DNA from: Eledone cirrhosa
Lineage: Eukaryota
Direction: 5' to 3'
DNA: 64,000 bases
Assembly (NCBI GenBank): GCA_964016885.1
Contig: OZ024761.1
Coordinates: forward strand, 10,850,001-10,914,000
Shown piece after piece: positions 37,801 to 46,800 of this stretch. The translations under genes and the position numbers were made by a program. Position 1 is the stretch's first letter; the number at the start of each line of letters is the position of its first letter. The notes beneath the pieces were generated by a model, which was not told the origin of the DNA, made no database searches, and saw only the letters and a program-made list of their open reading frames with translations.

Positions 37801-40800
37801 ATGCACTGACACACACACAGACGACACACACATACACACAACACACAAACACAAACACGCAAGCACACATGTACTAACACACACACACGCACACACACAC
37901 ATGCACATACCCACACACACACTGACACACACAGCCATGAGACTAACCAATATCGACACAAGACACTAATCAATCAATATATATATCAATATATTTATAA
38001 ATCTATCAGTAAAATACCTTTCAACGAGATTAGGTCTTCTGTAAATAAAAATTGATTTAATCATAATTTTAGAAAGAGAAAATTAATCAAAGTTCATTAA
38101 TTACATTAATTAATGGAAGCATAATAATTGTTTCTACTTTTGGCACATGGCCAGCAATTATTCCAGTGTATTACTGGTACTTTATTTTATCGACCCTGTA
38201 AGGATGAAAGGCAAAGTTAACCTCGACGGAATTAGAACTCAAACCGTAAAGAGCCGTAACTCTATGCTGCAAAGCATGGTGTCCGACCCTCTACCGATAC
38301 TGCCAATCCATATATTAATAATAATTATTATTTCTTTATTGGCCACAAGGGCCTACATATAGAGGACAGTACAATAGACAGGGACAGGGGGCTGACATAT
38401 AGGGGACAATACAATAGACAGGGACAGGGGGCTGACATATAGGGGACAATACAATAGACAGGGACAGGGGGCTGACATATAGGGGACAATACAATAGACA
38501 GGGACAGGGGGCTGACATATAGGGGACAATACAATAGACAGGGACAGGGGGCATTACATATATAACGTGCAAGAAAATATAAATAACAATAAAAATAGCA
38601 AACAAGAGTTCCCCAATAGGGGGGGGGGGTAACAACCCAACACTCTGAGGCCCCCGGGAAGGGTACTTTCCTTCTCCTCAAATTAGCCAGACTACAGGCA
38701 TATGCTCAGAGCCGGTCTGTTATGGTAATGAAAGGGTTAATGACATAGGTAGTGTCTTTCATTAGAAATATGTTAATGAAAGGGTTAATGACATAGACAG
38801 TGTCTTTCATTAGAAATATGTTAATGAAAGGGTTAATGACATAGACAGTGTCTTTCATTAGAAATAGGGTAATGAAAGGGTTAATGACATAGGTAGTGTC
38901 TTTCATTAGAAATATGTTAATGAAAGGGTTAATGACGTAGACAGTGTCTTTCATTAGAAATATGGTAATGAAAGGGTTAATGACATAGGTAGTGTCTTTC
39001 ATTAGAAATATGTTAATGAAAGGGTTAATGACGTAGACAGTGTCTTTCATTAGAAATATGGTAATGAAAGGGTTAATGACATAGACAGTGTCTTTCATTA
39101 GAAATATGGTAATGAAAGGGTTAATGACATAGACAGTGTCTTTCATTAGAAATATGGTAATGAAAGGGTTAATGACATAGACAGTGTCTTTCATTAGAAA
39201 TATGGTAATGAAACGGTTAATGACATAGGTAGTGTCTTTCATTAGAAATATGTTAATGAAAGGGTTAATGACATAGACAGTGTCTTTCATTTGAAATATG
39301 GTAATGAAAGGGTTAATGACATTTACAGAGTCAAATAGGCGATATAAGGGGAGATAACTAAGAGAGGCAAATTGTCAAGGGAGGTAACTCTGAAAGAAAG
39401 TCTAGCTGGGTTGATTTTAAGGGGAGTTAACTACCAGAGGTTAGTTGTAAAGGGAGTTAACTATAAGAGAGATTAATTTTTTAGGGAAGTTTTGTAGAGG
39501 AGTGGATAATACTTACTTGTTGTCCTTCAGTACTCTCCTCCAACTTTCATACAAGTCAGGATCAGCACGTTTTATATCTTTCAACCTTCCCTGGCATTTT
39601 ATTTGATGACGATTCACTACAATAATCTGGACAGAGAAACATTACATTATATTACTACTACCATAGGTGTGTGTGTGTGTGTCTGTCTGTCTGTCTGTCA
39701 AACTGAGATCAGTTTGACAATCGCCACCGATGAATGCAATGCGAGAAAGTTAACCAGGAATCTTTAAAATTCTTCCCACCAAAGTTAACAAAGAACTTAC
39801 TAGATCAACCAACTCATAATATAATATAAAATTAAATCAAATTATTTAGAACTACAAGTGAAGTCATTCTTTTCCCTTTTTTTTTCAAATATATATATAT
39901 ATATATATATATATATATATACATATATATATATATATGTGTGTATATATATATATATATATATATATATATATATATATATATATATATATATATATAT
40001 ATACACAGTGAATGTTCGCTCATCCGGACGGTCAAAACCAAACAGTTAGAAAAAGATCCGGTTAAGTGAATTTTAAAATCCCATTGTTAGATAATTGTTT
40101 CTACTCTTGGCACAAGGCCAGCAAATTACCCAGTGTATTACTGGTACTTTATTTTATCGAGCCCCCCCCCCCCCCCCCCGTAAGGATGAAAGGCAAAGTT
40201 AACCTCGACGGTATTTGAGATCAGGCCATAAAGGGCCGTAACTCTTTGCTGCGAAGCATGGCATCCGACCCTCCACCGATATTGCCAAGGCTTGTGGTTT
40301 CTAATGTTTTGGCTTATTTTAGTCAAAATAAAAGAAAAATGCTAAGTAAAGAAAATTTATTAGAATAACAAAAGAACAGCTAGAATTTATAAGAAAATTA
40401 ATTAAACAAACTTAAGAATAACTAAAAACTTGGTAAAACTGAATTGAGTGAAACCGTAAAAAGTTAGAAATAGCCGTCAGGTAAATCGAATTTCAGAAAA
40501 GCGACGCCTGGGCTGGTTTGGGCACGCTTTGAGACTTCCTCCGGAGAGACTGGCGAACCAAGTACTTAAATGGAACCCACAGAGAAGCAGACGGAGAGGG
40601 CGCCCCAAAATGAACTGGCGCCAAACAGTTGAGAGGGACCTGCGAGCGACAGACAACGGCGGGACACTGTGCAACTGGCTGCTGACCGCGGTGGAACACT
40701 ATGATTGCCTCATGCGTCGCAAGACGCGGGAGCTTCTGAGTCCGAGTCTGATATCCGGATAAGCAAAGATGCACTGTATATATCTATATTGGCACTGACC

Positions 40801-43800: not shown

Positions 43801-46800
43801 ACACTAGCTTCACACATACTCACTCACACACACTAGGTACATACATACAAACACGCAGTGGTGTTGATTGCACTCCAGGACACAGGTCACCAATTGATAG
43901 AAAGCAGTGAGAGAATTCTGGCCAGCTACAGCCTGTTTAAACAGAAAGAGGTGTAAGAATTCTGGCCAGTTACAGCCAGTTTAAACAGAAAGAGGTGTAA
44001 GAATTCTGGCCAGATATAGCCAGTTTAAACAGAAACAGGTGAGATAATTCTGGCCAGATATAGCCAGTTTAAACAGAAAGAGGTGAGATAATTCTGGCTG
44101 ATATGGGTGGTTTAAATGCTAAAGGGTTAAAATAACTTACTTCCTCCAGTTATATGGTTGACCAAAAAGTATATTTTCTTGGACTGTGGCATTCATGAGC
44201 CAAGGTGGCTGAGAACAATACGCCAATGTACAGGCTCTGTAATAACAAACCAGTAATAAAATAATGATTAATTAGTAATTAACTAGTAATTAACTAAAAA
44301 TTAAATAATGATTAACTGTAATTCTCCAGTTATGCAAACAACCCCTAATATGTAGAGCTGACTGATCAGTCACTGTATATTCCAGAAAATATCATACATT
44401 TTCACAAGCTCAGACATTTGGCAGGTAAGCAGTATACAGCACTGATGAAAGGTAATCACCCAGAAACATTAATGTCTGCCAACACAAGAGCAAAAGCAAG
44501 AATGATGGGGTCATTCTACTCACATGGCTTAAAGAGGCTTTTTCCATAATTGCAAATGAATCGAATAATATCATTAATATTCGACAAAATCAAATTTACA
44601 TTTCTTATATATATTTACATATATATATATATTGCAAGAGCTGGAGGCATCGTGCTGATGAGAACTAGTTCAGTTTGAAATGCTTTGACGATTGTCCCTC
44701 TTGCTTCTGATGGGCACGGCCAGGTGGCGATAACTGCCAGTGTTTTTACATAGCTACGGCTTTCTAAATGTTTATTTATAAACATACCGGATTTCTTTAG
44801 AAATACGAATATATATATATATATATATATATGAAGTATTTCCATAAGAAGGGTAAAGGAAAACAGAGTGCTCTATGTATGCTACAGAGCTATTTAATTA
44901 TGTAATAAACAACATAAGACAATTATTCCATTTACCAAAGGTTTCATGAAGACAGACTAGCTCAACAGAGACGTCTGAAATCGCTCATCCAAATGAAAAT
45001 TTAATATGGACGTAAGTATGAATATTTTTCCCATTATTTTATTTTATTTCTTATCTTTATTTTATTATATTTCAGCCTCATTTTCAATTGTAATTGTCTT
45101 TGTTTTTAAATTATCATATTAAATTTTCATTCTGATGAGCGATTTCAGACGTCTCTGTTGAGCTAGTCTGTCTTCGTGAAACCTTTGGTAAATGGAATAA
45201 TTGTCTTATGTTGTTTATTACATAATTATATATATATATATAGAGAGAGAGAGAGAGAGGTGGTGGTATATATATATATAGAGAGAGAGAGAGGTGGTGG
45301 TATATATATATAGAGAGAGAGGTGGTATATATATATATATATAGAGAGAGAGAGAGAGAGGTGGTATATATATATATATAGAGAGAGAGAGAGGTGGTGG
45401 TATATATATATATATATAGAGAGAGAGAGAGAGAGGTGGTGGTATATATATATATATATAGAGAGAGAGAGAAGGTAGAGAGAGGTGGTATATCTACCTG
45501 TTCCACTCCATCAGTCCAGAATCTAGAACCATCTCTCCCAACATGGCCGACAACAATGTTGATTTACCTGACCCAGATGGACCTGTTATAATGGTCATTT
45601 TACCTGCAGAATAGAACACACCTATAGTAGTAGTAGTAGTAGTGGTAGTAGTGGTGGTGGTGGGTAGAGGTCATGTGAGGGTGGGTAGTGAGGTCGGGTG
45701 ACAGTGGATAGAGAGGTTCGGTGAGGGTGGGTATGGAAGTCGAGTGGTGGTGGCTGGATAGAGAGGTCGAGTGAGGGTGGGCAGAGAGGTCGAGTGGTCG
45801 TGGGTAGAGAGGTTAGGTGAACGTGGGTAGCGAGGTTGAGGTAACTTACCCAAGGGTATTTTGATGTTGATATCCTTTAAACAGGAAGAATCATCGGAGA
45901 GGTCCGTTGAGAAGCAGGCGTCGGTGATATCGAGGGCAAATCGGGGTTCGTTCGAATGGGTCGGGTCATTCATTTCCCCTCCCTCGTCCTCCGTTATCGA
46001 GAGGTTGCCGTTCGTGTTCCGCCGTCGGTGGTGGTGGGGGTGGTAAGCCCGCCTCTCCGCTGTGAACGCGTCGCTTTCAGAGGTGACCGAGTGCTGCGAA
46101 AAGCTAGGCCGACGAAACGCCGGATCGAGGATGTCCAACACGGAAGCTCCGCTGTTCTGTCGACTGTGGTTTGGAGTGTGACCCAACGGGGGACTACTGT
46201 CCACGGATGAGATGCTCCCCCGCATCGCGCCATTGTGGAAGGCCATGCTCAGCTGGTTTGTCTTCACATCGTACTTCATCAAAGTATCGAGCTTGTTCTA
46301 ACAACAACAACATCAGGAAGATTAACATCACGCACACAGAATCATCATCATCGTTTAATGTCCGTCTTCCACTCTACCATGGGTTAGACATATAATATAT
46401 ATATATACACACATAATATATATATATATAAATATATATACACACACACGTATATATATATATATATTGTTATACTTTGGGAGGGTCATGTTGCCAATAA
46501 GAAACACACGCACCAGTTGCTTTCACTTCAATTTATTATAATAAATTTATAAATTTAGGAATTTATAAATTTCCGGTTGGTTGGTTGGTTCCACAACCAG
46601 ATGATTGTTTATATATTGTCAAAGTTCTTTCGTCACACATTCTGAGACCTCTTCAGTGAAAACAAGATGGTGTAGGACAGAAAAAAACAAGATGGCGTAG
46701 GACAGAACAAAGGAGAGGCACAAAAACAAAGAAAAGAATCCCCAGTCACTGAAGAGGTCAAAGAATGTCTGATGAAAGAACATTGACAATATATAAACAA

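Follow-up and report, generated by a model that had tools for sequence, protein, structure and literature searches.

The 64,000-nucleotide stretch of Eledone cirrhosa DNA analysed here (contig OZ024761.1, positions 10,850,001 to 10,914,000; hereafter the window) is repeat-rich animal DNA carrying an octopod sulfonylurea receptor (SUR, ABCC8/9-like) gene on its minus strand. In ATP-sensitive potassium (KATP) channels the SUR is the subunit that senses energy state. Judged by its sequence, the gene is a coleoid cephalopod SUR with a degenerate consensus nucleotide site. A preliminary description, made from the letters of the window alone, had proposed a pseudo-ATPase on the strength of the first nucleotide-binding domain (NBD1). 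The proposal is supported: the second domain (NBD2) is also degenerate in all coleoid orthologues, and the gene has no disabling lesions, is conserved, and has transcripts in related species.

Searches with tblastn placed 23 coding exons between 58983 and 1773, corresponding to residues 296-1464 of the Octopus sinensis orthologue. The window covers the end of the L0 linker to most of the second transmembrane domain (TMD2); TMD0 lies beyond its right end and NBD2 beyond its left end. Joined together, the exons gave a stop-free frame with AG and GT at all 23 of them, in agreement with the open frame and clean splice sites described before. The joining used an acceptor at 57892, although the one at 57847 is better; the choice between them leaves the frame unchanged. 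No stops, frameshifts or broken splice sites of the kind expected in a pseudogene were present. The joined protein is 87.9% identical to that of O. sinensis (P0013), 82.5% to that of Argonauta and 67-69% to two decapodiform proteins, falling to 41% for abalone and 36% for human SUR2.

NBD1 is encoded by seven of these exons. The first (45850-46297), which also contains Ser/Arg-rich linker between TMD1 and NBD1, has the sequence ACFST, whose Thr (45907-45905) aligns with the A-loop Trp. In the alignment, Walker A (45583-45557, exon 45498-45603) and the Q-loop Gln (44211-44209, exon 44141-44236) are intact, and the helical-subdomain exon (42802-42886) ends with the X-loop, TEVGEQ. The signature, by contrast with the LSGGQ of active ATPases, is LTEGQ, encoded by CTC ACA GAA GGC CAG at 41513-41499 in the exon 41442-41522; this signature forms part of consensus site 2. 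The exon at 40800-40937 keeps Walker B DD, and its D-loop, read in translation as DDPFTKME at 40937-40914, has TKME instead of SALD, with Glu for Asp at 40916-40914. In the same exon VSPH (40838-40827, within ILVSPHIPH) places Pro (40832-40830) in the switch-His column. The final NBD1 exon is at 39517-39626. The motifs named in the preliminary description were all where it had put them.

The comparison of orthologues took in Argonauta, three species of Octopus and two transcript clusters from decapodiforms. The exon with TKME matched proteins labelled 'ABCC9-like' in O. sinensis and in Argonauta hians; O. vulgaris and O. bimaculoides are members of this cluster as well. A search with NBD2 added two Logan clusters at 85% identity, one of which includes a Sepia pharaonis fragment; the second was assigned to the decapodiforms by its position in the tree. 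In the ESM Atlas, NBD2 matched generic ABC clusters only. Among the cluster members listed (15 of 21 and 4 of 4), 11 full-length open reading frames of 1716-1742 amino acids were found. As the decapodiform frames are full length on contigs of only 5.5-7.6 kb, they represent spliced transcripts.

Every coleoid NBD2 has GHAGSGRSS at Walker A (Lys to Arg), PHDP at the Q-loop (Gln to His) and VIVEQEHTN at Walker B, where Asp has become Glu, the catalytic Glu has become Gln and the D-loop is rewritten. These changes are joined with LTEGQ and the Asp to Glu change in the D-loop of NBD1. Site 2 is built from the Walker motifs of NBD2 and the signature of NBD1 (PMC4699857), and the coleoid changes in the two domains all belong to it. 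The A-loop Tyr, the P-loop glycines (GxxGSGxSS) and the switch His of NBD2 are retained and invariant.

The extent of this degeneration was scored in a survey that began with 412 proteins of at least 450 amino acids; 375 ABCC proteins had both NBDs and their motifs aligned (37 were dropped). No site-2 defects were found in 335, and one or two in 13 (three of these being alignment gaps). The remaining 27 proteins, all coleoid and drawn with isoforms from six taxa or clusters, had seven defects each, against two in the next worst protein; the motifs of a SUR-type consensus site are thus missing from their sequences. Arg, Glu, Gln and His replaced the Lys, Asp, Glu and Gln of an active NBD2 in 27 of 27, and we infer the same state for the window species. 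In non-cephalopod mollusc and annelid orthologues the NBD2 Lys, Gln, Asp-Glu and His were kept in 25 of 25, and xSGGQ in 24 of 25, one gene model being without that stretch.

LTEGQ, the D-loop Asp to Glu change and the loss of the switch His in NBD1 were likewise present in all 27 two-NBD coleoid proteins scored. Contigs from runs X1 and X2, identified as DNA because they run through the intron, showed no differences from the exon with TKME and VSPH (they cover this exon and not that with LTEGQ, and come from one sample, possibly the source of the window itself). The NBD1 motifs of the window are therefore neither chance nor an assembly slip. What is conserved is LTEGQ, the D-loop Asp to Glu change, the loss of the D-loop Ala and the loss of the switch His; TKM as such and the His that follows Pro turned out to be specific to the species, orthologues having SKIE, ATIE or STME at the D-loop and VSPQ, VTSQ or VTTQ at the switch.

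The same observations bear on whether the gene is an artefact or a decaying pseudogene, or whether the site is restored by A-to-I RNA editing. Coleoids recode heavily by RNA editing, and the signature Glu codon is GAA, from which a change to GGA would bring the signature Gly back. However, the frame is open across 23 exons, the motifs are identical in six taxa or clusters, and the transcript-derived coleoid proteins keep Glu in all 12 cases that cover the position. The Arg, His, Glu and Gln of NBD2 cannot be reverted to Lys, Gln, Asp and Glu by A-to-I changes; the signature Gly is the one residue that editing could bring back. We regard this whole group of explanations as extremely improbable.

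Several comparisons support the identity of the gene as a SUR. The coleoid orthologue P0001 aligns with SUR2B and SUR1 over all domains (TMD0-L0-TMD1-NBD1-TMD2-NBD2), and the best matches by sequence in the PDB are SUR2B/2A and SUR1 (E 5e-277). In an AlphaFold model of the decapodiform protein P0269 both NBDs are folded (mean pLDDT 79.7) and the best fold matches are SUR2 and SUR1; the underlying alignment is dominated by canonical relatives, so the model informs on the fold only. Features of SUR-type TMD0, an N-terminal Cys pair and an HNxE motif, are present in five orthologues. One tree was built on whole proteins (33 rows) and another, with IQ-TREE, on the membrane domains alone (19 rows; SUR clade 100/100). 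The coleoid proteins fell inside the mollusc SUR clade, apart from the MRPs, as sister to gastropod and bivalve SURs (100/100). In both trees a coleoid stem of 0.80-0.83 changes per site is followed by crown branches of 0.04-0.13.

The coleoid clade thus occupies the position expected of the single mollusc SUR orthologue, and the earlier proposal that the gene is a SUR paralog is unsupported. A canonical cephalopod SUR turned up neither among the 120 of 1386 matches listed, an incomplete search in which the octopod proteins P0001 and P0002 were missed too (a 5-mer count did not account for this), nor in the search with NBD2. A search of 1.84 billion representative sequences, with 67 of its new matches placed in the tree, likewise gave no canonical cephalopod SUR, nothing further that grouped with the coleoid proteins and nothing that could be recognised as from Nautilus; this database groups relatives above 50% identity and so hides those within a cluster. 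The degenerate SUR is probably the only one that cephalopods have. One O. sinensis protein of 301 amino acids on a 239-kb scaffold (P0018), named 'ABCC8-like', differs very little from the dead NBD2 that the main gene encodes, and is likely to be an assembly duplicate rather than a canonical paralogue.

To see where in the protein change had accumulated, positions conserved in at least 90% of 34 non-cephalopod SURs were examined for loss in coleoids. TMD0 had lost 0 of 28 and L0 2 of 7; the losses were 10 of 46 in TMD1, 20 of 78 in NBD1, 14 of 51 in TMD2 and 28 of 88 in NBD2. The ABC core had therefore lost 72 of 263 conserved residues (TMD0 versus core, p=3e-4). Control clades lost 0-2 conserved positions per domain, and single control species up to 12 of 79. 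In the coupling loop of TMD2, RFFDTTPxGR (family MRFFDTTPxGRI) has become HFESTPPAT in coleoids; in the window this remodelled intracellular-loop motif lies in the TMD2 exons at 7556-7390 and 5504-5435. TMD1 and TMD2 have 61 and 77 coleoid-invariant residues, respectively, that were not seen in other orthologues. Identity between octopus and decapodiform proteins is nevertheless 87% in NBD2 (87-96% among all coleoids), 74-80% in NBD1 and 81% in TMD0, compared with NBD2 identities of 69% for Aplysia-Biomphalaria and 76% for Pomacea-Littorina. The octopods and decapodiforms separated roughly 270 million years ago. These losses, together with the long stem and the high identities, suggest a single episode in which the ABC engine and its coupling were rewritten, with little change since, and from which TMD0, the domain that docks on the channel, was spared.

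The preliminary description had suggested that both nucleotide sites may be impaired, and this is supported only in part. Losses were above the NBD background at site 2, with 11 of 23 conserved positions lost against 31 of 125 elsewhere in the NBDs (p=0.026), and not at site 1 (6 of 18, p=0.30). Site 1 keeps the Walker A Lys, the Q-loop Gln, Walker B DD and a partner signature F(S/T)xGQ; the A-loop Trp and the switch His are lost. It may still bind ATP.

The part that site 2 plays in other proteins suggests what its loss would mean. In vertebrate SURs this site (K1384, D1505, E1506, the Q-loop Gln and LSGGQ) senses MgADP, and all of these are changed in the coleoid protein. In SUR1, activation by MgADP and MgATP is weakened by mutating either the Lys of Walker A or the Asp of Walker B at this site (PMC4699857), and a Walker B Glu to Gln change blocks hydrolysis in ABC proteins and impairs ABC transporters (PMC7756269). 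The SUR1 mutants K1384A and E1506D/G/K and the Glu to Gln 'hydrolysis-dead' ABCC constructs are altered at the same positions as the coleoid SUR; the impairment of such mutants is the basis for reading the coleoid protein as hydrolysis-dead. By analogy with them, the coleoid SUR is very probably unable to hydrolyse ATP, and is likely to have lost activation by Mg-nucleotides. The coleoid changes differ from these laboratory and disease mutations in being natural, combined, fixed and conserved across a whole animal group.

We propose that the coleoid SUR acts as a hydrolysis-dead, nucleotide-uncoupled auxiliary subunit of a K+ channel. The intact TMD0 would dock on a potassium channel, probably a Kir; consensus site 2 would no longer be switched by MgADP; and the folded ABC core would be retained for structural reasons, perhaps with ATP still bound at site 1. 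The role of the subunit, like its Kir partner, is conjectural, and would lie in channel assembly, trafficking and a fixed gating set-point. The first TMD0 helix is described as the primary Kir6 anchor, and TMD0 alone assembles with Kir6.2 (PMC10950283). For this mechanism taken as a whole we put the chances at about even.

Several points weigh against it. The state of NBD2 in the window species is deduced from orthologues that are 88% identical. The enrichment of losses at site 2 is modest (p=0.026). Since the membrane domains alone yield the same long stem, sequence change was not confined to the nucleotide sites. Lys205 in L0 of SUR1 contributes to the binding of inhibitory ATP, and its position is His in coleoids, yet the Lys is also absent from canonical mollusc SURs. 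A dead NBD2 that is 87% identical is more conserved than a mere scaffold would require, and most of the site-2 changes are conservative (Lys to Arg, Asp to Glu, Glu to Gln, Ser to Thr), with the NBD2 A-loop Tyr, P-loop glycines and switch His retained. The pairing of invertebrate SURs with Kir channels is unsettled even in arthropods (PMC12258255, PMC11577616); a Kir6 partnership is established for vertebrate SURs only.

The conservative nature of the changes also fits a site 2 that has become a non-hydrolysing sensor, in which binding of ATP or another nucleotide, perhaps without Mg, regulates the partner by itself and ATP is read rather than ADP. Gating of SURs does not require hydrolysis (PMC10950283), SUR1 K1384A still binds nucleotide in the absence of Mg (bioRxiv 10.1101/402206), and SUR1 E1506 mutants are still activated by MgATP, which they prefer (PMC3114383). 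Because the changes are conservative and the mutants bind or respond in these ways, a sensor that binds but does not cleave is supported, as it is by the invariance of the retained NBD2 residues and the 87-96% identity of the domain among coleoids. Against it stand the Glu that replaces the first Gly of the signature, the His that replaces the Q-loop Gln (a Mg-binding residue), the Asp to Glu change in the NBD1 D-loop and the remodelled coupling helix, all of which, from what is seen in ABC structures, would hinder NBD closure and transmission. We consider such a sensor possible, though it is not the reading we favour.

The new residues of site 2 could alternatively have been put to use as a metal-ion or proton sensor, the added His and Glu binding Zn or Cu or titrating near pH 7 and so driving the SUR switch. 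NBD2 has 11-13 His in five coleoids and 2-8 in 24 other orthologues. Invariant new His are found at Walker A (1583; O. sinensis numbering throughout), the Q-loop (1630), the D-loop (1712) and beside the switch (1742 and 1745), and Glu at 1709, 1711 and 985. His makes up 8 of the 63 novel fixed residues of NBD2 against a background of 2.3% (p about 1e-4). However, control clades have a similar share of His among their own novel fixed residues (2 of 16, 3 of 17 and 1 of 11), which makes this enrichment a weak statistic, and a sensor of this kind is unlikely. The fuller scheme, in which coleoids gave up ADP sensing of the KATP type and their sole SUR, with its His/Glu sensor for protons or Zn/Cu, serves a pH- or metal-gated SUR-Kir channel, is distinctly unlikely. 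If true, it would be the first natural ABC membrane protein that has no working ATPase site and has a non-nucleotide switch.

The changes in the membrane domains raise one further alternative, that the remodelled TMD1 and TMD2 form a passive carrier, a pore or a ligand-binding cavity that has no Kir partner. The 61 and 77 novel invariant residues and the long stem from membrane domains alone are in keeping with this, and CFTR is a precedent for an ABCC protein turned channel (PMC7756269). Against it, TMD0 is preserved in full, N-terminal Cys pair and HNxE motif included, and no gating cycle is evident once ATP-driven NBD closure is removed. SURs are not known to transport substrates. A carrier or pore is very unlikely.

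The preliminary description had also suggested control by phosphorylation instead of nucleotides. Gastropod, bivalve and annelid SURs (Haliotis rubra XP_046564179.1, Aplysia, Pecten, Owenia) share with the coleoid protein a long Ser-rich linker and PKA-like sites, and they differ from it in having canonical NBD2 catalytic residues in all 25 cases. Each of the two linkers has 1-3 PKA-like sites in coleoids, against 0-3 in the canonical SURs of molluscs. As such sites are equally frequent in canonical proteins, phosphorylation does not appear to be a specific replacement.

Other known systems resemble the coleoid SUR in part. SUR2/ABCC9 and SUR1/ABCC8 are like it in domain order, TMD0 features, fold and clade, and their site 1, with DD at Walker B, is degenerate too. 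In ABCG5/G8 the dead site likewise combines Walker A Lys to Arg with an altered signature (PMC7756269); ABCG5/G8 is, however, a transporter with a second, active site, whereas the coleoid SUR has lost the only active site of an ABCC protein. The same review states that every human ABCC has one consensus site and that in full-length human ABC proteins it is invariably site 1 that is degenerate (PMC7756269).

Databases already list the gene, under the generic name 'ABCC9-like'. Searches of open-licence PMC and bioRxiv literature found neither a cephalopod SUR described nor any natural ABCC protein with both sites degenerate, although supplements to genome papers may list the gene. The portions seen of two Sepia esculenta transcriptome papers (PMC11917092, PMC13296053) name ABCC1/5/7/10 and not ABCC8/9. 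There appears to be no earlier account of the dead consensus site, of its confinement to coleoids or of the sparing of TMD0. Loss of the consensus site together with high conservation in both octopods and decapodiforms provides a natural test of SUR roles beyond the sensing of Mg-nucleotides. It bears on whether hydrolysis matters to SUR function and on the channel partner of invertebrate SURs, and a canonical abalone or Aplysia orthologue is a ready control for direct testing. If this is the sole cephalopod SUR, these highly aerobic animals would either do without classical ADP-activated KATP regulation or sense metabolism through another ligand.

Other departures from the canonical motifs were noted in other lineages. 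A SUR that is sister to the vertebrate SURs in the tree (P0285) has the NBD1 signature LTPGQ and canonical NBD2 catalytic residues, and from these motifs would represent an independent, milder drift of site 2. Eight chytrid fungal ABCC proteins (P0105, P0110, P0111, P0118, P0119, P0121, P0126 and P0132) have LSPSQ, LSSSQ or LSASQ as NBD1 signature and Ser or Thr for the NBD2 switch His, so that their consensus site is possibly impaired. Crustacean SURs (P0079, P0081, P0063 and P0088) have Walker B DA or DS in NBD1 and AHG and QDT variants in NBD2; Lys, Gln and Asp-Glu are kept, and two are without the NBD2 A-loop Tyr.

The remaining exons of the window, all on the minus strand, were placed by tblastn and the joined frame. 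The end of L0 and the start of TMD1 are encoded at 58983-58624 and 57847-57695, and the rest of TMD1 at 56270-56115, 54819-54685, 54137-53975, 53347-53307 and 52085-51837. An in-frame exon of 75 nucleotides in the TMD1-NBD1 linker (50336-50410) occurs in some isoforms of Octopus, whereas the Argonauta and decapodiform proteins lack it; it is likely to be a cassette exon, giving alternative splicing of the linker. The NBD1-TMD2 linker and the first TMD2 exons are at 28497-28413, 24587-24500 and 15765-15518, and further TMD2 exons, beyond those of the coupling loop, at 4922-4765, 2951-2859 and 1875-1773.

The introns contain repeats of several kinds. Two long, near-perfect inverted repeats lie between NBD1 exons, one at 42985-43337 (arms of 171 nucleotides, 96% identical, with a loop of 11 nucleotides) and one at 44891-45232 (118 nucleotides, 97%, loop of 106 nucleotides). 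They are MITE-like, and would give double-stranded RNA in the pre-mRNA that could serve as ADAR substrate. Fragments resembling the C-terminus of a non-LTR reverse transcriptase, which we take to be of an RTE-like family, were found in the large TMD2 introns at 12849-13550 (plus strand) and at about 8190-11360. Long tandem minisatellites adjoin exons at 41550-42220, 42290-42790 and 56213-57012, and yield spurious long open reading frames.

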